Shown: piece by piece, positions 45,096 through 59,814 of the stretch
How positions within the stretch are numbered: the stretch's first letter is position 1
Layout: each line of letters starts with the position of its first letter
NCBI RefSeq assembly: GCF_003790525.1
Contig: NZ_CP033635.1
Strand: one strand, 5' to 3'
Source: Escherichia coli
GTDB taxonomy: Bacteria; Pseudomonadota; Gammaproteobacteria; Enterobacterales; Enterobacteriaceae
DNA length: 64,000 nucleotides
Program-made: the position numbers and the translations under genes
The notes under the pieces: generated by a model
Database searches by the model: none
Seen by the model: the letters and a program-made list of their open reading frames with translations, nothing else
Told to the model about the DNA's origin: nothing

Positions 45096-45998
45096 TTATT
45101 GATAAACAAAAGTCACGCCAATAATCGATTGCACATTCCCTGCAGTCACCTGCCCTCCGGTACGTGCGTAATTTGCCGTTAATCCCAGACTTACCGCCGA
45201 AGTCCCTACTGCTCCTAACGATACCGTGTTATTCGCTGGAATAATCGTACCGTTGCGCGTCAACTGTACGCCGACGCCCTGCGCGGGTGAAAACGAGGCG
45301 GTATTGGTGAAAATCGAGTTGCCCGCATCTGCGGTTGTGCCGGAGAGGTAATACCCCAGGTTTTGGCTTTTCGCACAATAAACGGTAAGAGGAATCGGCA
45401 CTGAACCAGGGTAGTCCGGCAGAGTAACGGTGACATCACGAGCAGAAACATCGCAGCCGCCAGTGGGCACCACCACATCATTATTGGCGTAAATATTCCA
45501 CACAAACTGAAAATCATCGCTGTTATAATTGTTGGTCTGTCGCAAAATAAGCACGGCAATTAATGAACCAGCTTTAATCGCCACCCCGCCCGCACTGCTC
45601 ACAGGCGTCAAATAAAGCGCCACCGGCCACGGCTTATCCGTTCTCGAATTATAAACAACGCGCGGCGTTTCACTGGTGGTCGGAAATGGATAGCTACTGC
45701 CACTATATTTTACGGTCCCGGAAAAATTAGATAACACGCCGCCATAAGCCGAACCTCGTTGCAGTGTGACATAGTCTGTAATGGTTTCCGGGTAATCGTT
45801 ATGGCAAAAGATTTGCGTCGAAAGATCTACGACCAGGTTTTGCCCCACATTCACGGCAGGCGCAAGGTTTACATAAACATTGGCGCTGCCACCGCCAATA
45901 GGGATTGCGGTACCATTGGCGGTTTTACAGGCGAATGACCAGGCATTTACCGACCAGCCCATCAGCAGTACAGCAAACAGGGTAATAACTCTTTTCAT
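45096..45998 (-). CDS. fimH: Type 1 fimbrial adhesin FimH
   Basis: 300 aa from ATG 45998; mature N-terminus FACKTANGTAIPIGGGSANVYVNLAP, lectin and pilin domains. Confidence 0.9.
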   Translation of the reverse strand: MKRVITLFAVLLMGWSVNAWSFACKTANGTAIPIGGGSANVYVNLAPAVNVGQNLVVDLSTQIFCHNDYPETITDYVTLQRGSAYGGVLSNFSGTVKYSGSSYPFPTTSETPRVVYNSRTDKPWPVALYLTPVSSAGGVAIKAGSLIAVLILRQTNNYNSDDFQFVWNIYANNDVVVPTGGCDVSARDVTVTLPDYPGSVPIPLTVYCAKSQNLGYYLSGTTADAGNSIFTNTASFSPAQGVGVQLTRNGTIIPANNTVSLGAVGTSAVSLGLTANYARTGGQVTAGNVQSIIGVTFVYQ

Positions 45999-46017
45999 TA
46001 CAATCATCTCTTTGGGT

Positions 46018-46521
46018 TCAGCTGTAGGTATAGGTGATGCTAATCACTGCCTGAATGGTTCCCTGAGTGGCTCCGCCATTTACCGTCAATGCTCTGACCT
46101 GTAACGGGAAGTGCGCTGATTGTGAGGAATCATCCACCTGCACTGTTTTGGTTGCGCCAGTATTCAATGTGTTGCCACTGTCATCCTGTAGCTCTAACTG
46201 GATGTTTTGCGCGGTCCCCTGGTTTTTATAATATCCGGTACTGTCGGCTGCCCCGCTGAAGCTGGCAGTGACCCTCGACGTTCCCACCGGACAATGAGTC
46301 AACTCAAGCGCAACATCATGCCAGGCCGATGCCGCACCGGCAGACACGAGACTGAAAGAATAAAGATCGCCGAGATCAATCGTGGCATTGGTGGTGGAAA
46401 CTGTGCACGGTTTGGCGACGACCTTACCGTTCACCGTGATGGTGACATCGGCTGCCTGTATCGTCGCACTTGCGAACGCCAACATTGCCGCCAATAAATA
46501 CCCACGTTTGCGCCATTTCAT
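46018..46521 (-). CDS. fimG: Type 1 fimbrial minor subunit FimG
   Basis: 167 aa from ATG 46521. Confidence 0.9.
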   Translation of the reverse strand: MKWRKRGYLLAAMLAFASATIQAADVTITVNGKVVAKPCTVSTTNATIDLGDLYSFSLVSAGAASAWHDVALELTHCPVGTSRVTASFSGAADSTGYYKNQGTAQNIQLELQDDSGNTLNTGATKTVQVDDSSQSAHFPLQVRALTVNGGATQGTIQAVISITYTYS

Positions 46522-46533
46522 GAGCATCTCCAG

Positions 46534-47064
46534 TTACTGATATTCAAGAGTGAAGGTAGCCGTGGCATTAATATGCCCCGCAGTGACAGGCACCTGTGTC
46601 GCCATTAGCCGGGCGTAAAAATTCAACGTATTTGGTTTACCCGGCGTCAGGGTCGTCCACGAAATCGCGGACGATGGGGCATTAAGGGGTATCTCATTTT
46701 GCTGCTCATTCAGAAGCTGTATTCCCAGTCCCGCAGCCGCTGACACCGTATTTTCAAGTGCAAGCAGGTTGGCATTGTGGCTATCTGCAACGCCGGTAAA
46801 CCCAACCTTTACGGCAGAAACAGCGTTACCACAGGGTGACAGCAAAATACGAAATGGAACGACAGGAGTCGTCGCGCCAATGTTGTTAAATTGCTTCGCC
46901 GCGTTTTCCATCAGATCAACAGTAAAATTGGTTGATTCAGCGGCCACACTACAGCCATTATCTCTGACATAGCCGCGGATAGTAATCGTGCTATCCGCAG
47001 CCAAAGCGTGACTTACCGCCAGCCACAAAAAAGCGCAAAGAAGATAAAAAGGTTTGTTTCTCAT
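46534..47064 (-). CDS. fimF: Type 1 fimbrial minor subunit FimF
   Basis: 176 aa from ATG 47064. Confidence 0.9.
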
Positions 47065-47073
47065 CACGCCCCC

Positions 47074-49710
47074 TTAACGACATTCAGCTGATAGCTGGGT
47101 TAATAACTGCTGCTGACTCTCTGGTGGCAGTTGATAATTGGCGACACAGTGAGCATTTTCCTCTTCTCCCCATTTCACCTGAACTTTTCCCGCTAAAGGC
47201 ATTCCGCTGAGGTAAACCTGACCATTATCCGCAACAATGCCGCTACTCTGGCTACTCTCTGATGTCACCATCGCCCCAAACGGCAGCGGCTTATTATTGT
47301 GGGTTAGCGTCATGAGCAGTTTTATCCCAACGCGCGCTTTAAACTCTGCTCGCACGATCGCCCCACGAGTGGGAACAACGTTAGCGACCGAGTTATCTAA
47401 ATCGACGTTATCAGCCAGGGTATTGGTATCCAGCGCCACTCTGTTTTCCCGATATTCAGTGGCATATGGCAGCACGGCATAACCCCGCCAGTCGGTACGC
47501 ACTCCTGTCTGGTTTTCGACTTTTGCATCTTTTGCGCCAGGCGCTTTAACAAGCACCACCGTATCGTTTAACGGCTGCCCCAGCGTTACGCCATTGGCAT
47601 GAGCCAGTACCCCACCGCTGACTCCGTAATAGAGCTGCTTAATATCATCGCTATGGCTGTAACCGATATTGGCATTGCCGTAACCACCGCGATAATTCAG
47701 CGTGGCGTAGCCTGTACTTCCGCTATTACCATCACCTCCCCCGGCGTAACCGGTTTGCACGCTATAGCTGAGGTTGTTGTCTTCCAGCAACGTACCGTAT
47801 ACACCGGCCAGATTGGTCATCCGACCGTTGAGATCGTGTGACATGCTGTAACTGGCACTGGCATGTCGCCACTGAGATTTACTGTCAGAACGCAGCCAGT
47901 GGCTGAAAGGAATATTGACGTTAAGCGCTAACATCTGATCCCGTCCTTTTTGCCAGGCGTTTTTCGTCAGGCTATAGCTGAGCGTCCAGTTGATATCTTC
48001 GAATGCAGTATTTAAACCAGCCTGGAATTGCTCATCGACATTATTCGTTCCCCAATAAGTTTGATGGCTACCACTCAAATACAGTGTTGATGAGCGCCCG
48101 AGTTGCTGAGTAACGGTGAGCTGTAATTTCCCGCGTTTGTTATAAGCGAGGTTGTAATAGTCGGTGAATTTCGGCTTAACCTGAATAACTCCGTCCTGTG
48201 TTTCGATGTTGTAGCCATTCATTCGACTGTATGTTGTATCAGCGAAATTAAAATATCCGCTGGTCGAATAACGGTAACCCACTAACTGAATATTCGTGCC
48301 TGACTCATTGAGCGATTTGTTATAGAGAAAACGCACCGATTGTCCGTCATGCTGACTGTCATCGGGAAGTGTGGAATTAGCCTGCGTCATATCCACAGAC
48401 AGAGCACCCAGTGCCCCCATGTTTTTCCCGATACCGAAATTAAAAGCACGATAACGATCCGCCAGTTGCGTTCCACCATATATTGTCCAGCCAGCCGGAA
48501 GGCCGTGGAGTAATGTACTCTGGAAAAAGCGGGGTTTTTCCTGTTGCGCATTTCCACTACGGTATTCTCCTGCCGTAATGGAATAACGAGTATGCCCTTC
48601 ACGTTGCAAAAGCGGGACTGACGAATAGGGTACGGTAAAAATCTGCGTGCTGCCGTCAGCCTCTTTGATCGTTACCTGCAAGTCACCACTATTACCTGCG
48701 GCATAGATATCGTTGATGGTAAAAGGCCCCGGTGGCACCGTACTATTATAAATGTCATACCCATTTTGTTTAATAGTGACCTGTGCAGTACCACGAGCAA
48801 TACCGTGGATCACCGGGGCAAATCCTCTTTGGCTATCGGGTAACATATTGTCATCTGAGGCCAATTGTGCGCCGCGAAAGTTAATACCATCGAAAATATC
48901 GCCCTGAGTATAACCATCACCCAGCGTCAGCCGGGAACGTAACGGTATTATGTCTCGCTCAAGCCAGGTATTGATATGCTGCCATTTATTTTTGCTACCT
49001 GATGAACTGTCGCTACTGTTATAACTCCAGGTGGTATTGTCGCGTAAACGCCACGCACCAATATTTAACCCACTCTGTAGGTTTAAATATGCATAATGGC
49101 TGTTACCCCCAATTCGATTCTGTACACTATTTCCGCTGAAATTATAATTGAGCAATCCGGCATTAATACCGGGATCCCATAACTCAGGAGGAATATAACC
49201 ACGCGCGCGATTACTCATAAATGCCTGAGGGATCGTCAGGTTGAGTCGCTGCTGACCCACATCCAGTTGCGCAGTAGCGTCATGTATCATTGAGGTTAAT
49301 GGCACGCAGGCATCATCCGCCAGCAGATTCATACCGGAGACAGAAGCCGTATTCAGCCCCATACTGGCAAGTTGCGCGCGTGTCAGGCAGGGAACAATCC
49401 CTTGTTCACTGTCGCCCGTATTAAATGTGACATCACGCGTTGCCATATAACCATTATTCAAATAGATATCGACACGATACGTCCCTGGCGGTAATTCTTG
49501 CCCATTCTCAAAACGCGATAAATCAGCCACAGCCTGGGGATCATCCGCTAAAAAACGCGGGTTAAAATAGAGTTCGGCAGATGACAAAGGTGCCTGTGCG
49601 GCAAAAGCACAGGCAACAAAGAGCCGGACAAAAAAACCAGCCAAACGATGCTTACGAATATGCAAGCATTGTGTGTTTCGCTGGTAAAGTCTTAAATTCA
49701 GATATGACAT
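47074..49710 (-). CDS. fimD: Outer membrane usher FimD
   Basis: 878 aa; sequence matches FimD throughout. Confidence 0.95.
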   Translation of the reverse strand: MSYLNLRLYQRNTQCLHIRKHRLAGFFVRLFVACAFAAQAPLSSAELYFNPRFLADDPQAVADLSRFENGQELPPGTYRVDIYLNNGYMATRDVTFNTGDSEQGIVPCLTRAQLASMGLNTASVSGMNLLADDACVPLTSMIHDATAQLDVGQQRLNLTIPQAFMSNRARGYIPPELWDPGINAGLLNYNFSGNSVQNRIGGNSHYAYLNLQSGLNIGAWRLRDNTTWSYNSSDSSSGSKNKWQHINTWLERDIIPLRSRLTLGDGYTQGDIFDGINFRGAQLASDDNMLPDSQRGFAPVIHGIARGTAQVTIKQNGYDIYNSTVPPGPFTINDIYAAGNSGDLQVTIKEADGSTQIFTVPYSSVPLLQREGHTRYSITAGEYRSGNAQQEKPRFFQSTLLHGLPAGWTIYGGTQLADRYRAFNFGIGKNMGALGALSVDMTQANSTLPDDSQHDGQSVRFLYNKSLNESGTNIQLVGYRYSTSGYFNFADTTYSRMNGYNIETQDGVIQVKPKFTDYYNLAYNKRGKLQLTVTQQLGRSSTLYLSGSHQTYWGTNNVDEQFQAGLNTAFEDINWTLSYSLTKNAWQKGRDQMLALNVNIPFSHWLRSDSKSQWRHASASYSMSHDLNGRMTNLAGVYGTLLEDNNLSYSVQTGYAGGGDGNSGSTGYATLNYRGGYGNANIGYSHSDDIKQLYYGVSGGVLAHANGVTLGQPLNDTVVLVKAPGAKDAKVENQTGVRTDWRGYAVLPYATEYRENRVALDTNTLADNVDLDNSVANVVPTRGAIVRAEFKARVGIKLLMTLTHNNKPLPFGAMVTSESSQSSGIVADNGQVYLSGMPLAGKVQVKWGEEENAHCVANYQLPPESQQQLLTQLSAECR

Positions 49711-49776
49711 TATTCCTCCGGTTTAAAATCACCCGGCAGTCAATTCTTTTTATTCAGGCGAAAAATTCCCCCTGCG

Positions 49777-50502
49777 TTATTCCATTACGCCCGTCATTTT
49801 GGGGGTAAGTGCGCCATAATCATTTATTGTTCGGTAAGTAATATTGCTTCCTGCATCAGAAGGCAATTTAACCGTGCTTTCGCCCATTGGAGGCACCAAT
49901 GCATTTTCAAGAACCCGGGTTCCGGCATTCAACTCTGTTACCGTCAGGTAATAGGGTGTCGGGTTAATCAGCGTCAGAGAATTCGCGCTACGACGAAATC
50001 TTAATTTTTCTGCGGCCTGATCGGGTGGCAACGCTAATTTAGCCGGGCGATAGTACAGTTTAATGCGGCTGATAATTGCGAGCTGTAGCGTATTCTCAGT
50101 CAATTTTGATTTATCCATTGACGGAATCGCTTTAACGTTCATCCAGAATAAACTTTCCCGATCCTGTGGCAATTGGTTATTTGTTGCATCAAGAATACGT
50201 AAGGTATTCTCTTTTTTTCCCTTCATCGCAAACAGAGGTGGCGTCACGATAAAACGACCATCCTTAACACCATCGGCATTTTCCACCCATGATTGAATTA
50301 AATAGGTACTATTTTCATCATTATTTGTCACGGCAAGTTGCACTTGTTTTTGCCCTGCCGGATAAATTACGCGAGTCGCACCTAAGGCCACTCCCGCTTC
50401 AGCGCGTCCGGCAACCACCATTGCCATGAACATCAGGATACCTGCCAGCAAGCAGAATGTTATTTCCTGCGATTTCCTTACATTGACGTTTTTATTACTC
50501 AC
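49777..50502 (-). CDS. fimC: Periplasmic chaperone FimC
   Basis: 241 aa PapD-like chaperone. Confidence 0.95.
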   Translation of the reverse strand: MSNKNVNVRKSQEITFCLLAGILMFMAMVVAGRAEAGVALGATRVIYPAGQKQVQLAVTNNDENSTYLIQSWVENADGVKDGRFIVTPPLFAMKGKKENTLRILDATNNQLPQDRESLFWMNVKAIPSMDKSKLTENTLQLAIISRIKLYYRPAKLALPPDQAAEKLRFRRSANSLTLINPTPYYLTVTELNAGTRVLENALVPPMGESTVKLPSDAGSNITYRTINDYGALTPKMTGVME

Positions 50503-50538
50503 TGTCCTGTTCCTGTTATCACATTATCTGCTGAACAA

Positions 50539-51078
50539 TTACTGATAGGTTAAAGAGAACCAGGCCTGGGCATTGGCGATGCCGCCAGTAACCCGACGCC
50601 CGGTAGCACGATATTTGGCGATGAAATGTAGCGAAGTAGAGCCTGAGTAAAGCCGTTTCCAGTTTGCTGGAGGACGATTAATCGGTACGAGGTTTCCTTC
50701 ATCATCAAATAACGCTACGCCAATATTGGTGGCTATCCCTGGCCCCTCTCCCACGGAAAGCACATCCGGATTTTTACCATCCGCGACACCGTGAAACGCC
50801 ACACCCACACGTTCACTCACCACCGTGCTACATTCCCGTAAATGAATAACAAAAGGCACCGGTGCGCTATCTTCCCCAACCGCATGAAACCGGTTACTGC
50901 TGATTTGCCCCATATTGACCGTCATTTGTTTATCCCCAGCTTCAATCCGGCAAGCTTCTGCAATAATGACGCCCTGAAATTGCATATTTCCGCCGGGCAA
51001 CGTGGTGTTCCATTTATTTCCGGCCAGAGCAAACATTGGCAGTAACGACGCTAATAGAAATAATCTCTTCCTTTTCAT
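50539..51078 (-). CDS. fimI: Fimbrin-like protein FimI
   Basis: 179 aa from ATG 51078 ([19 protein letters not shown] signal peptide); the track ORF extends upstream to 51210. Confidence 0.8.
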
Positions 51079-51142
51079 TGTTATTTTTATCGCACAAGGG
51101 TGGGCATCCCTGCCCGTAATGACGTCCCTGAACCTGGGTAGG

Positions 51143-51691
51143 TTATTGATACTGAACCTTGAAGGTCGCATCCGCATTAGCAGCACCTGGGGTTGCGGCA
51201 CCGGTTGCAAAATAACGCGCCTGGAACGGAATGGTGTTGGTTCCGTTATTCAGGGTTGTTTGTGCACTAAATGTCGCACCGTCCAGCGCCAGCGCAGCAC
51301 CCGTTCTGTCCAGGATCTGCACACCAACTTTTGTTGCGCTACCCGCAGCTGAACTCTGCAAAGCTAATACGTTAGGATGAGTTCCATCAATTGCGGTACC
51401 AAGGAAGGCAATAGCAGCTTTGTCTGCAACAGTAGTGTCACAATCGTTCAGTTGAATGTTAAAACCGACAGCAGAACTGGTTGCTCCTTCTTGTGCCAGC
51501 GATGCGGTACGAACCTGCCCTAACTGAACGGTTTGATCAACAGAGCCTGCATCAACTGCGCAAGCGGCGTTAACAACTTCCCCTTTAAAGTGAACGGTCC
51601 CACCATTTACCGTCGTAGTATCAGCCAGAGCCGCTGCGGAACTGAGGGACAGAGCCGACAGAACAACGATTGCCAGAGTTTTAATTTTCAT
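51143..51691 (-). CDS. fimA: Type 1 fimbrial major subunit FimA
   Basis: 182 aa; signal peptide [24 protein letters not shown]-terminal FKVQYQ. Confidence 0.9.
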
Positions 51692-51810: not shown

Positions 51811-52124
51811 TTGGGGCCATTTTGACTCATAGAGGAAAGCATCGCGCACAAACTTTTTCAGTTTATTTGTTGGCTTAATATTCTATTGTTATCTTTATTT
51901 ATAGATTTTTATATTGCATGAGGTGGTTTTTGGAGAGAAGAATGAGGAAGATGCATCGAGCCACAGAAACGTTAGCTTTACATATAGCGGAGGTGATGTG
52001 AAATTAATTTACAAGAGAAATAATTTACATATCAAACAGTTAGATGCTTTTTGTCGTTTTTTGATATTTTTATGCTTGAGAAAAAATACGTAACTTATTT
52101 ATGATATGGACAGTTTGGCCCCAA
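51811..52124. promoter_or_regulatory. fimS: fimS invertible element (314 bp) bounded by 9 bp inverted repeats TTGGGGCCA / TGGCCCCAA
   Basis: Inverted repeats at 51811-51819 and 52116-52124 are exactly 314 bp apart (outer edges), between fimE and fimA. Confidence 0.8.
52076..52106 (+). promoter_or_regulatory. fimA promoter (TTGAGA - 18 bp - TATGATA) inside fimS, pointing toward fimE (phase OFF)
   Basis: -35 TTGAGA at 52076-52081 and -10 TATGATA at 52100-52106 read on the + strand; they abut the fimE-proximal inverted repeat, while fimA is on the - strand at the other end. Confidence 0.55.
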
Positions 52125-52171: not shown

Positions 52172-52768
52172 TCAAACCTCTTCTCTTTTTAATTTTTCGT
52201 TTATGAGATTATTTCTTTCCCATAATCCGGCAAAACGAGCAGCATTACTGGCGGTATAACGCACAGTATGGCGAATATTTCGATGCCCGAGATAATCCTG
52301 AATTAAACGGGTATCTGCACCACGCTCTGCCAGTTCATAACCGCAAGCATGCCTTAACATATGAGGATGAGTCTGCGTTACGGTTCCAGCTTCAATACCG
52401 GCATCGCGAATAATGCGATAGGCCTGCTGGCGAGAAAGCCGACTCCCGCGGCGAGAAATAAATATAGCGTCGGTCCGGTCAGCGCCTTTCCAGTTAGCAC
52501 GTTCCTGGGTCCAGCGTTCCACGGCTTCACGCTCATCAAAACGTAACGGGTGAACGGTAGAAAATCCGTTCTTCAGTCGGCGAATATTTATTCGACCTTC
52601 ATTAAGGTCAAGGTCCTGATAATGCAGATCAAGCAGTTCACTAATACGCATCCCATGCCGATATGCCAACAGAATAAGACAATAATCTCTGGCTCCCGTT
52701 GCCCCGTAACAAACCGCCTGCATCATGGCCTGAACTTCTTTACCGGTAAGATAACGACGTTTACTCAC
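52172..52768 (-). CDS. fimE: Tyrosine recombinase FimE (ON-to-OFF switching)
   Basis: 198 aa; matches FimE. Confidence 0.9.
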   Translation of the reverse strand: MSKRRYLTGKEVQAMMQAVCYGATGARDYCLILLAYRHGMRISELLDLHYQDLDLNEGRINIRRLKNGFSTVHPLRFDEREAVERWTQERANWKGADRTDAIFISRRGSRLSRQQAYRIIRDAGIEAGTVTQTHPHMLRHACGYELAERGADTRLIQDYLGHRNIRHTVRYTASNAARFAGLWERNNLINEKLKREEV

Positions 52769-53245: not shown

Positions 53246-53848
53246 CTATAAAACAGCGTGACGCTGTCGTCCTCTGGCTCTATCCCAGATGCCGTAAAAA
53301 CGCCCTGCATTGCTGGCGGTATACCAGACAGTATGACGAATATTGCGATGCCCAAGATAATCCTGGATAAGTCGCGTATCTATTCCCATATTCGCCAAAG
53401 CAAAACCACACGAATGGCGTAACATGTGCGGATGAATCTCCAGTGACAACCCGGCATTACCACCGGAAGTCGAGATAATATGGTAAAACTGTTGCCGAGA
53501 AAGTGGATTCCCCTTACGTGATAAAAATACCCACTCGCTCTCAGCATGCGGATAAGAAGTACGGATACTCAACCAGTTTTTTAAAGCCTGAATTTCTTTG
53601 TTCAATAGCGGGTGCGTTGTTGAAAAGCCTTTTTTTAATCGATGGATATATATACACTTTGCCTTAAGATCAATATCCGAAATCCTCAATCGGCAAATTT
53701 CACTCGCCCGGAAACCATGAATAAAACAAAGCAAAGTCAGACAATAATTACGTGCAGCATGAGGCCCGGTATTTGCTGCTTTAAGGAGTGATTCGATTTC
53801 ACTATGGGTAAGGAAGTTCCTTTTTTTGTTATCAGCCTTATTCTTCAT
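53246..53848 (-). CDS. fimB: Tyrosine recombinase FimB (bidirectional switching)
   Basis: 200 aa; matches FimB. Confidence 0.9.
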   Translation of the reverse strand: MKNKADNKKRNFLTHSEIESLLKAANTGPHAARNYCLTLLCFIHGFRASEICRLRISDIDLKAKCIYIHRLKKGFSTTHPLLNKEIQALKNWLSIRTSYPHAESEWVFLSRKGNPLSRQQFYHIISTSGGNAGLSLEIHPHMLRHSCGFALANMGIDTRLIQDYLGHRNIRHTVWYTASNAGRFYGIWDRARGRQRHAVL

Positions 53849-56038: not shown

Positions 56039-57145
56039 ATGAATAAAACAATAATGGCGCTTGCTATCATGATGGCTTCATTTGCCGCAAACGCGTCTGT
56101 ATTACCGGAAACTCCTGTGCCATTTAAAAGTGGTACCGGAGCAATTGATAACGACACTGTCTACATTGGTTTAGGTAGCGCAGGTACAGCATGGTACAAG
56201 CTGGATACACAGGCCAAAGATAAAAAATGGACAGCGTTAGCTGCATTCCCTGGTGGACCGAGAGATCAAGCAACCTCTGCATTTATTGATGGCAATCTGT
56301 ATGTGTTTGGCGGCATTGGCAAAAACAGCGAGGGCTTGACTCAGGTATTTAATGACGTACACAAATACAACCCCAAAACTAATAGCTGGGTTAAATTGAT
56401 GTCGCACGCGCCGATGGGCATGGCGGGCCATGTGACTTTTGTACACAACGGCAAGGCTTATGTTACTGGCGGTGTTAACCAGAATATCTTCAATGGCTAT
56501 TTTGAAGATCTCAACGAGGCTGGAAAAGATTCAACCGCTATAGATAAAATCAACGCCCACTATTTTGACAAAAAAGCAGAAGATTATTTCTTCAATAAGT
56601 TTCTGTTGTCTTTTGATCCCTCAACACAGCAATGGAGTTACGCTGGCGAATCTCCCTGGTACGGAACGGCTGGTGCGGCGGTTGTGAATAAAGGTGATAA
56701 AACCTGGCTTATTAATGGCGAAGCCAAACCAGGATTGCGAACGGATGCCGTATTTGAACTTGATTTCACCGGTAATAATTTAAAATGGAATAAGCTTGAT
56801 CCCGTCTCATCACCAGATGGCGTCGCTGGCGGTTTTGCGGGGATAAGCAATGATTCTCTTATATTTGCCGGAGGGGCCGGATTCAAAGGTTCACGAGAAA
56901 ATTACCAGAACGGTAAGAACTATGCGCATGAAGGCCTGAAAAAATCATATAGCACTGATATTCATCTTTGGCATAACGGGAAATGGGATAAATCGGGTGA
57001 ATTATCGCAAGGTCGGGCCTACGGAGTATCATTGCCCTGGAATAATAGTTTATTAATTATTGGCGGTGCAACTGCAGGCGGCAAAGCGGTGACGGATTCA
57101 GTTTTAATTTCTGTGAAGGATAATAAAGTCACAGTACAAAACTAA
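56039..57145 (+). CDS. nanM: N-acetylneuraminate mutarotase NanM (Kelch repeats)
   Basis: 368 aa from ATG 56039; signal peptide MNKTIMALAIMMASFAANA. Confidence 0.9.
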   Translation: MNKTIMALAIMMASFAANASVLPETPVPFKSGTGAIDNDTVYIGLGSAGTAWYKLDTQAKDKKWTALAAFPGGPRDQATSAFIDGNLYVFGGIGKNSEGLTQVFNDVHKYNPKTNSWVKLMSHAPMGMAGHVTFVHNGKAYVTGGVNQNIFNGYFEDLNEAGKDSTAIDKINAHYFDKKAEDYFFNKFLLSFDPSTQQWSYAGESPWYGTAGAAVVNKGDKTWLINGEAKPGLRTDAVFELDFTGNNLKWNKLDPVSSPDGVAGGFAGISNDSLIFAGGAGFKGSRENYQNGKNYAHEGLKKSYSTDIHLWHNGKWDKSGELSQGRAYGVSLPWNNSLLIIGGATAGGKAVTDSVLISVKDNKVTVQN

Positions 57146-57209
57146 CGCTTCAGGGCCCCGGTAAAGGGGCCCTGCTATCAATTTGTCATTTGTATTACGC
57201 GAAAATTAT

Positions 57210-58190
57210 ATGAACGCAATAATATCGCCCGATTATTACTATGTTCTTACCGTTGCTGGTCAGTCTAATGCCATGGCGTATGGCGAAGGACTGCCATTAC
57301 CGGACAGGGAAGATGCGCCTCATTCCAGAATTAAACAATTAGCGAGATTTGCGCATACGCATCCCGGAGGCCCGTCATGTCACTTTAACGACATTATTCC
57401 TCTGACTCACTGCCCACACGATGTTCAGGATATGCAGGGTTATCACCATCCTCTGGCAACGAATCATCAAACACAGTACGGCACCGTTGGCCAGGCACTG
57501 CATATTGCACGAAAATTACTGCCCTTTATTCCTGATAACGCAGGGGTTCTCATCGTTCCGTGTTGCCGTGGCGGATCGGCTTTTACCGCGGGCAGCGAAG
57601 GGACATATTCAGAACGGCACGGAGCCAGCCATGATGCTTGTCGTTGGGGATCGGATACTCCGCTATACCGGGATTTAGTCAGCAGAACGCGAGCCGCACT
57701 GGCAAAAAATCCGCAGAACAAATTCCTCGGCGTATGCTGGATGCAAGGCGAATTTGACTTAACGACCAGTGACTACGCGTCACACCCTCAACACTTTAAT
57801 CATATGGTTGAAGCCTTTCGTAGGGATCTAAAACAATACCATTCTCAGCTTAATAATATTACTGACGCGCCGTGGTTTTGCGGCGATACCACCTGGTACT
57901 GGAAAGAAAAATTCCCTCATGCGTATGAAGCTATTTATGGCAATTATCAAAATAATGTTTTAGCCAATATTATTTTCGTCGACTTCCAGCAACAAGGTGA
58001 AAGAGGACTGACGAACGCGCCTGTTGAAGACCCGGACGATTTAAGCACGGGATATTACGGTTCAGCGTACCGGTCACCGGAGAGCTGGACGACGGCACTG
58101 CGAAGCAGTCATTTCAGCGCGGCAGCCCGTCGGGGGATTATTTCTGACAAGTTTGTAGAAGCAATTTTGCAGTTTTGGCGCGAAAGGTGA
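57210..58190 (+). CDS. nanS: 9-O-acetyl-N-acetylneuraminate esterase NanS
   Basis: 326 aa from ATG 57210; third gene of nanCMS. Confidence 0.85.
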   Translation: MNAIISPDYYYVLTVAGQSNAMAYGEGLPLPDREDAPHSRIKQLARFAHTHPGGPSCHFNDIIPLTHCPHDVQDMQGYHHPLATNHQTQYGTVGQALHIARKLLPFIPDNAGVLIVPCCRGGSAFTAGSEGTYSERHGASHDACRWGSDTPLYRDLVSRTRAALAKNPQNKFLGVCWMQGEFDLTTSDYASHPQHFNHMVEAFRRDLKQYHSQLNNITDAPWFCGDTTWYWKEKFPHAYEAIYGNYQNNVLANIIFVDFQQQGERGLTNAPVEDPDDLSTGYYGSAYRSPESWTTALRSSHFSAAARRGIISDKFVEAILQFWRER

Positions 58191-58243
58191 GCGTTCATTA
58201 ATTTGATTTATTTGCATCCATCAACGCTTTTAACTGCTCCGGC

Positions 58244-58990
58244 GTGCGGCACTATAATGGTTTTCACAACAAGGAGCCATTTTCTTATACCACTTTCAGA
58301 GACCATCCGCTTATGCCACCGCCCTCTACGCAACTGTTTGCAGAGCACCTTCCCACCGAGTGGATACAGCACCTCCTGACGCTTTCTGCTCATGCGACCA
58401 TTTGTCGTCTTAACCTGAGCGCGGATGGCGAAGCGGGGATTAGCCTGCTGGCCCGCAGCGCTGTCACCCAGGAGCGCCAGCGCGTGGGGGCCCCCTGGTG
58501 GAATGGCTCTTCCGCCAGACCGCACAGACATGGGGCGCGGAACGTTACCTGAAGGATGACTGGCACGGCCTGCAACTTTTTGCCATTGATGGCGCACAGT
58601 TCAGGACACCTATGAACCTGAGTTGCGCGAATATTATGGCTCTGCCAACACATCCACTGAGCGGCAGAGCGCCTACCCGGTCATGCGTCTGGTGGCGTTA
58701 ATGAATCTGGGAATCACATTCTGCTGAATGCCATGACCTCGGCCTACCGGCGGAGCGATACAGCGTGAGGCAACTAAAGCGGCGTCAGAAATCAGCTTTA
58801 AGTTCGCATTCCAGTTTATCGTGACAGAAATGATAGTGCAGGGAAATACGGCGTCACCAGGAACCATCCCGAAACGGCTGGAGCATCTGCGGGGTGCTCT
58901 GGAAGCGGTGTTCCCACGACTATCAAGGCCGAGGGCTGTTAAGGTATCAAAAACCCGTTATCCGGTGAAACACAGTGCCGCCCCGCTTAA
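58244..58990 (+). pseudogene. IS4-family transposase remnant (frameshifted, internally deleted)
   Basis: Translations in two frames align to IS4 transposase segments as I recall them (e.g. QTAQTW ... LFAIDGAQFRTP and the C-terminal KTRYPVKHSAAP); no intact ORF; no terminal inverted repeats identified. Confidence 0.5.
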
Positions 58991-59163
58991 GTGACGGCAT
59001 TGTGTTTCTGACTGGCCTTAACTTTCCCTGAATCTCTGACGATCCTCACCATTGATATTTTCTTCATTCCTCACCAGAGAAATAAAAAATCACTATACTC
59101 ATCAAAATATGAGATTACATTTATTCAGGCGATCACCTTACTATTTTATACGGAAAATAAATC

Positions 59164-59814
59164 ATGAATATCCGTCAATCATTACATGACCGAATCTATG
59201 CAGAATACCCTCAACAGGCTAAAGATATATTACTGTATTTCCCCACTTATGAAATTATGCCATCGACCATAAAAATGGTTATGATTAATGAGGTGGTAGC
59301 TATAACACCGCAAGAAGATTTTTATACACCAGAGTCTGGTTATTTTACGACTGTCGCCCGACAGTTAGCGCTGGCTGGATTATCGGCAAGTAGTGGCGAA
59401 GTCTTACTCAACCATGGTATCTACCTGACCTCCGCACTGAAACTACCTAAAACACAGATCACAGCCACACCCGCGGAGATCATTCTCTGGTCACCTATTG
59501 TAGAATGGGAGCTCGAACTCTTTGCCAATATAAAAGTTATTTTCGTTGGCGGCGATATCGCGCGAAAATGCCTTAACATCATCGCGAAAAAGCAAACACG
59601 TAAACATGCCATCCCTTCAACTCCGACGTACAAACTGATGAATAGCGAATTAGTCTGGAAAGGAATAAGCATACTTCCTGGATATATTCTTACCGGAAAA
59701 AACCTGCTCATTGAAAAGTCAAAAATCGAAATGAATGTCGAACAATTAAGAAAAGGAATTGCGATTTATCGCAATAGTAACAGTAACCATACGAATAATT
59801 CAGTTCATGAATAA
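59164..59814 (+). CDS. Hypothetical protein (216 aa), AT-rich; possibly uracil-DNA-glycosylase-superfamily-like
   Basis: ATG 59164; no close family recognised; weak resemblance to UDG-fold motifs (IFVGGDIARK ... KHAIPSTP); convergent with the helicase gene. Confidence 0.45.
   Translation: MNIRQSLHDRIYAEYPQQAKDILLYFPTYEIMPSTIKMVMINEVVAITPQEDFYTPESGYFTTVARQLALAGLSASSGEVLLNHGIYLTSALKLPKTQITATPAEIILWSPIVEWELELFANIKVIFVGGDIARKCLNIIAKKQTRKHAIPSTPTYKLMNSELVWKGISILPGYILTGKNLLIEKSKIEMNVEQLRKGIAIYRNSNSNHTNNSVHE

Follow-up and report, generated by a model that had tools for sequence, protein, structure and literature searches.

The fimH gene of an SMS-3-5-like Escherichia coli very probably encodes the species-consensus FimH adhesin with alanine at position 27

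The gene described here is, with high confidence, the fimH of an Escherichia coli strain of sequence type ST354 and phylogroup F that closely resembles strain SMS-3-5, and its product is the species-consensus FimH adhesin. It lies in a stretch of 64,000 nucleotides (contig NZ_CP033635.1 of assembly GCF_003790525.1), hereafter called the window, whose first-pass annotation had singled out the alanine at mature position 27 as a possible pathoadaptive trait. Ala27 in FimH is already known, and the protein encoded in the window is the most ordinary FimH variant. The use of the result lies in a correction of polarity: when K-12 is taken as the reference, the common and, on the best-supported polarity, ancestral Ala27 takes on the look of a "V27A mutation" and is easily misread as a marker of virulence, an error that has already been flagged (PMC3554634).

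An intact fimH gene encodes a two-domain adhesin

The segment at 45096-45998 is an intact fimH gene encoding the FimH tip adhesin of type 1 fimbriae. The gene and the parts of it that matter for the argument are as follows.

45096..45998, minus strand: fimH, 300 codons and a TAA stop (from the list of open reading frames [ORFs]), type 1 fimbrial D-mannose-specific tip adhesin
45936..45998, minus strand: FimH signal peptide, MKRVITLFAVLLMGWSVNAWS (21 amino acids), placed from the starts of mature chains in the PDB
45462..45935, minus strand: lectin (mannose-binding) domain, approximately mature residues 1-158; the Pfam match covers precursor residues 24-168
45099..45458, minus strand: pilin domain, approximately mature residues 160-279; the Pfam match covers precursor residues 181-300; Val163 and Arg166 unchanged
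45855..45857, minus strand: codon 27, GCC, Ala (GTC, Val, in K-12), from the sequence read and a codon comparison
45726..45728, minus strand: codon 70, AAT, Asn
45702..45704, minus strand: codon 78, AGT, Ser

Solved FimH chains start at precursor residue 22, so that mature numbers are precursor numbers minus 21; by the same chains, the mature protein of the window starts with FACKTANG after MKRVITLFAVLLMGWSVNAWS. An alternative in-frame ATG at 46007, nine bases upstream of the fimH start, would give a precursor of 303 amino acids and leaves mature FimH unaltered. The mature protein contains VYVNLAPAVNVGQ, and reading the codons of the minus-strand ORF confirmed that it carries Ala27, Asn70, and Ser78, as the first-pass annotation had proposed. 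The same allele has Ser62, Val163, and Arg166.

The protein has the two-domain architecture of FimH in Pfam, an N-terminal mannose-binding lectin (PF09160, FimH_man-bind; 245.7 bits against a cut-off of 25; residues 24-168) followed by a C-terminal fimbrial pilin (PF00419, Fimbrial; 32.8 bits against a cut-off of 25.6; residues 181-300). A search of the same protein against NCBIfam returned no FimH equivalog, only sub-threshold matches to YehD and FimI. Using a list of pocket and gate residues taken from the established structural literature on FimH and from PMC9428848, we found the mannose pocket to be complete (F1, N46, D47, D54, Q133, N135, D140, and F142); the tyrosine gate (Y48, I52, and Y137) and the cysteines C3 and C44 are all present.

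For comparison with K-12 we used the fimH gene of MG1655 (NC_000913.3, 4548808-4549710). The two genes differ at 19 of 903 nucleotides; 18 of these differences are synonymous, among them the one in the Pro26 codon (CCT in the window, CCC in K-12), and the sole amino acid change is V27A. K-12 FimH (b4320, NP_418740.1) thus has the same length and operon position and shares 299 of its 300 residues with the protein of the window, including Asn70, Ser78, Ser62, Val163, Arg166, and every residue of the pocket, whereas at residue 27 K-12 has Val and the window has Ala. When positions 27, 70, 78, and 163 are checked against K-12, only position 27 differs. The first-pass annotation was correct in giving K-12 Val27, as the MG1655 codon is GTC.

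Crystal structures at 99.3-99.6% identity to the FimH of the window exist. The MG1655 protein, called FimH27 in PMC9428848, is identical to the chains of PDB entries 1KLF, 1QUN, and 4XO9/4XOB, and the mature FimH of the window matches 1KLF and 1QUN at 278 of 279 residues and 3JWN at 277 of 279. Two other solved variants share Ala27, Val163, and the mannose pocket with it and differ elsewhere. The FimH of strain F18 (3JWN, 4XOD, and 4XOE; FimH2 in PMC9428848) carries Ser70 and Asn78 where the window has Asn70 and Ser78, and that of UTI89 (9CCS; FimH18), from the B2-associated clade, has Ala62, Ser70, and Asn78 in place of Ser62, Asn70, and Ser78. The combination of Ala27, Asn70, and Ser78 was found in none of the best five PDB matches among full-length solved FimH proteins.

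Alanine is the majority residue at position 27

To estimate how often each residue occurs at position 27, exact 40-mers spanning codons 26 and 27 were run against the 5,426 complete E. coli genomes of RefSeq. The 40-mers were placed such that every 28-base megablast seed includes nucleotides 141 and 143, and a hit consequently demands an exact match at both. Four haplotypes were counted.

Ala27, T141/C143 (the haplotype of the window): 2,201 genomes
Ala27, C141/C143: 1,799 genomes
Val27, C141/T143 (the haplotype of K-12): 834 genomes
Val27, T141/T143: 100 genomes

Together they account for 4,934 genomes, with at least 80% of fimH being present in 4,959. Ala27 is encoded by about 4,000 of the 4,934 typable genomes (~81%) and Val27 by about 934 (~19%); as exact-word counts these are lower bounds, and the set of complete genomes is clinically biased and clonally redundant. 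Val27 was found on both synonymous backgrounds, a pattern that would fit a hot spot at which mutation recurs or recombination takes place. A 31-mer specifying Asn70 and Ser78 occurs in at least 4,536 of the 5,426 genomes and one specifying Ser70 and Asn78 in at least 324. Asn70 and Ser78, which the first-pass annotation described as retained, are the majority state in E. coli. The exact FimH protein of the window is encoded on at least 1,000 contigs of a public collection and corresponds to the UniRef entry Q83TY4_ECOLX.

The polarity of the change at position 27 was approached through a protein search, which gave FimH orthologues that were 73-87% identical and that their sources label as Kluyvera, Citrobacter, Klebsiella, Salmonella, Shimwellia, Erwinia, Serratia, and Pantoea. 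As outgroups, 23 cluster representatives were aligned, which bear the names of Citrobacter, Kluyvera, Klebsiella, Salmonella, and others or resemble these. At position 27, 14 of them have Ala, including most of the nearest relatives, and the remainder have Thr (4), Glu (2), Ile (1), Gln (1), or Val (1). Ser62 and Val163 are invariant in all 23. Because Ala27 predominates in E. coli and is also the most frequent state in the outgroups, the Val27 of K-12 appears to be a derived A27V change. The best-supported ancestral state would be Ala27; with a residue as variable in the outgroups as this one (A, T, E, I, Q, or V), the polarity follows the majority and the nearest relatives and not a formal reconstruction.

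The outgroups give a different picture at positions 70 and 78, where Asn78 is present in 20 of 23 orthologues and Ser70 in 16 of 23, these being the residues of the B2-associated clade of E. coli. We give roughly even odds to the idea that Asn70 and Ser78, found in the window, in K-12, and in more than 90% of E. coli genomes, are derived states specific to the species and that the B2-associated Ser70/Asn78 clade has kept the ancestral residues. A hint of this idea exists in the literature, where the variant with Ala27, Ser70, and Asn78 has been termed evolutionarily primary among extra-intestinal E. coli (PMC3091844). If true, it would reverse the label "evolutionarily primary" for the Asn70/Ser78 consensus; the matter concerns the evolution of FimH in general and nothing particular to this locus.

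Lineage of the fimH allele

The 903-nucleotide allele of the window occurs exactly in 15 of the 5,426 complete genomes, with SMS-3-5 (NC_010498.1) heading the list, and genomes with the identical allele come, among other sources, from humans (GN03551, a bloodstream isolate, is one), from chickens, from a pangolin, and from river water. The window corresponds, in reverse complement, to SMS-3-5 positions 4935429-4999428. The two are collinear over 64 kb and are distinguished only by three single-nucleotide polymorphisms (SNPs), at window positions 13642, 23152, and 57069. None of these falls in fimH, which is 100% identical over its 903 nucleotides to that of SMS-3-5 (ECSMS35_RS24360, WP_000832227.1). 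With so few differences, the strain would be either a different version of SMS-3-5 or a nearly clonal relative of it. SMS-3-5 belongs to ST354 (PMC9174282), which is listed under phylogroup F (PMC12817139). ST354 and CC354 isolates have been typed as fimH58 (PMC8117236, PMC10449506). Given an allele identical to that of SMS-3-5, the FimTyper type of the window is probably fimH58, an assignment made from lineage. The suggestion in the first-pass annotation of a non-K-12 lineage thus holds, as the strain is SMS-3-5-like, ST354, and phylogroup F; its support comes from the synonymous differences and the DNA on either side of the gene, and not from residue 27, from which, together with the accessory adhesin and effector-like genes, the suggestion had been drawn.

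A different history is conceivable, in which fimH came into phylogroup F by recombination at the fim/leuX hot spot and does not follow the vertical descent of ST354. The T141/C143 haplotype around codon 27 is common to distant lineages such as O157:H7, the occurrence of Val27 on both synonymous backgrounds is compatible with recombination as well as with recurrent mutation, and the fim cluster adjoins variable islands, GimA to one side and helicase genes to the other (both described below). However, the exact allele is limited to the 15 complete genomes mentioned above, and at least 10 of these also match across the 25 kb of flanking DNA at ~100% identity, a pattern suggesting that allele and flank were inherited together, clonally, within the lineage. 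We consider an import unlikely, and the identity and function of the gene would be unaffected even if it had taken place.

The fim operon and its switch

The fimH gene is the last of fimAICDFGH and lies downstream of fimB, fimE, and fimS. The structural operon upstream of it, which spans 46018..51691 on the minus strand, is complete, and the gene order of fimB, fimE, fimS, and fimAICDFGH, followed by gntP, is that of MG1655 and SMS-3-5. The structural genes were established from the ORF list, the annotation of SMS-3-5, and translation.

46018-46521, minus strand: fimG, intact
46534-47064, minus strand: fimF, intact
47074-49710, minus strand: fimD, intact
49777-50502, minus strand: fimC, intact
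50539-51078, minus strand: fimI, intact
51143-51691, minus strand: fimA, intact
51811..52124, no strand assigned: fimS invertible promoter element, bounded by perfect 9-bp inverted repeats, TTGGGGCCA
52172-52768, minus strand: fimE recombinase gene, intact
53246-53848, minus strand: fimB recombinase gene, intact

The fimG gene is start-shortened in the RefSeq annotation of SMS-3-5 (444 nucleotides, labelled "fimbrial protein"). Within 46018-46527 on the minus strand, the window holds an intact 504-nucleotide ORF of the K-12 kind, beginning MKWRKRGY, and the short form is an annotation artefact with no truncation of the gene.

Expression of the operon would be phase-variable, by inversion of fimS through FimB and FimE. 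The fimS element is identical to that of MG1655 at 291 of 296 positions and has the same orientation. Its best sigma-70-like site, TTGAGA and TATGAT with an 18-bp spacer, lies at 52076-52105 on the plus strand and faces fimE, away from fimA, a direction that implies that the assembly records fimS in the OFF phase. This could be taken to mean that the switch is locked OFF, so that the adhesin gene is intact yet silent and its allele has no phenotypic relevance. Such a lock is very unlikely: both recombinase genes are full-length, the 9-bp repeats are perfect, and the element is nearly that of K-12 in the same orientation, which is also the orientation in MG1655, a piliation-competent strain; moreover, a single assembly captures no more than the orientation that prevails in a phase-variable population. 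An intact switch that was recorded in one of its two phases is the reading with which we continue.

The consensus FimH and the question of pathoadaptation

Position 27 was described in the first-pass annotation as one of the pathoadaptive polymorphic positions of FimH, and it is indeed a polymorphic site that has been found to be under positive selection (PMC5302871, PMC4810151). What fails is the implication for the residue present here, as Ala27 is neither distinctive nor pathoadaptive: it is the state of ~81% of the typable genomes, the commonest one in other genera, and the published consensus. Dreux et al. describe K-12 FimH as the consensus, "evolutionarily primary" FimH plus A27V and note that Ala27 occurs in most natural FimH variants (PMC3554634). 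The consensus of Dreux and Sokurenko is K-12 FimH with Ala27 as its only change (PMC3554634), and the protein of the window is exactly the same, with Ala27, Asn70, and Ser78 and nothing else changed relative to K-12. What distinguishes the window from the consensus is only its lineage-specific nucleotide allele, found exactly in 15 of 5,426 complete genomes.

The consensus residue was found at positions 27, 62, 66, 70, 73, 74, 78, 106, 119, 128, 147, 158, 163, 166, 195, 201, 202, 242, and 273. At these 19 positions there is no hot-spot substitution that would mark a pathoadaptive variant, examples of such hot spots being A27V, A62, G66, N70S/S78N, G73, A106, A119, T158, V163A, and R166H.

Whether V27A can itself be pathoadaptive has been debated. 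A study cited by Dreux et al. argued for V27A as the primary pathoadaptive change of isolates from paediatric Crohn's disease, and Dreux et al. judged this unlikely because Ala27 is the consensus and is present in non-AIEC strains too (PMC3554634).

It is extremely improbable that the Ala27 of the window is a pathoadaptive V27A change from a Val ancestor that would identify the lineage as pathogenic or host-adapted and change how mannose is bound under shear: position 27 is among the positively selected sites, V27A has been argued for in the Crohn's isolates, and the strain bears ibeA/GimA and an inverse autotransporter nearby, but Ala27 is the residue of about four-fifths of the typable genomes and the commonest in other genera, where Val occurs in 1 of 23, and the idea has been explicitly rejected on the ground of the consensus and of non-AIEC strains. 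The only title that names a direction, that of Hommais et al. in 2003, which Dreux et al. cite, reportedly calls A27V, not V27A, the pathoadaptive change, in B2 isolates. Because Ala27 and Asn70/Ser78 are majority states, residue 27 alone is uninformative about commensal versus pathogenic status. The consensus reading of the protein is the one carried into the next section.

Predicted binding behavior

Residue 27 lies within the swing segment (residues 23-32), beside Pro26, at the interface where the lectin domain meets the pilin domain (PMC9428848). Pro26 has one backbone geometry in the tense state of FimH and another in the relaxed state, and the difference propagates to the linker and the insertion loop at the interface (PMC9428848). 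The lectin-pilin interface would set the equilibrium between a low-affinity tense state and a high-affinity relaxed state. In the UTI89 background, the double variant A27V/V163A is wholly relaxed, has high affinity, and is attenuated in mouse cystitis, and A62S moves the equilibrium in favor of the tense state (PMC5302871, PMC4810151, PMC11441496); in this biophysical work A27V is always paired with V163A and stands in the UTI89 background of Ala62, Ser70, and Asn78, unlike the Asn70 and Ser78 of the window.

With Ala27, Val163, and Arg166, as well as Ser62, and with pocket and tyrosine gate both intact, the FimH of the window would be expected to act as a standard allosteric catch-bond lectin. 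It would bind monomannose weakly at rest, more strongly under shear, and trimannose strongly, a prediction carried over from proteins that differ from it by 1-3 residues. The allele thus predicts a standard, shear-dependent FimH free of affinity-raising hot-spot substitutions.

Neighboring loci

Several other features of the window were noted. An accessory block of about 20 kb at 17098-37275 lies between hypT/yjiE (16100-17011) and iraD/yjiD. With gene names taken from the annotation of SMS-3-5, it contains nhaC (ibeT), ibeA (18516-19886), dhaR (ibeR), gcl-hyi-glxR-glycerate kinase, and genes for a BCCT transporter, an FAD oxidoreductase, an MFS transporter, glycerol dehydrogenase, dhaK, dhaL, and a ptsP-like protein. 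By its content and position, we take this block to be the GimA island known from extra-intestinal E. coli.

The first-pass annotation had also mentioned an accessory adhesin and effector-like genes. The adhesin is probably the 1,746-amino-acid ORF at 7514-12754 on the plus strand, which the SMS-3-5 annotation names as the inverse autotransporter IatD. The effector-like genes are probably those at 2987-6057 on the plus strand, which encode a pentapeptide-repeat protein of 657 amino acids and an ORF of 329 amino acids; the latter covers the gene for an SdiA-regulated-domain protein in SMS-3-5, whose coding sequence (CDS) is shorter (843 nucleotides). At least 80% of window positions 1-25000 is held by only 20 of the 5,426 complete genomes.

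Upstream of the fim/nan region, at 60328-64000 on the minus strand, is a gene for a UvrD-like helicase of 704 amino acids, whose best PADLOC matches are to GajB-type models (2.6e-36) and to a NERD+UvrD model. Its neighbor is the C-terminal portion of a DEAD/DEAH helicase of very large size (a CDS of 6,342 nucleotides in SMS-3-5), which has a weak HNH-like match to ZorE (1.3e-9). The two may form a helicase pair of a defence type. In the nan region itself, the sialate O-acetylesterase gene next to nanM and nanC is a truncated pseudogene in the SMS-3-5 annotation (57779-58345, within the region 57183-58345), a hypothetical gene near it at 58883-59564 is frameshifted in the same annotation, and the SNP at 57069 relative to SMS-3-5 falls in nanM.
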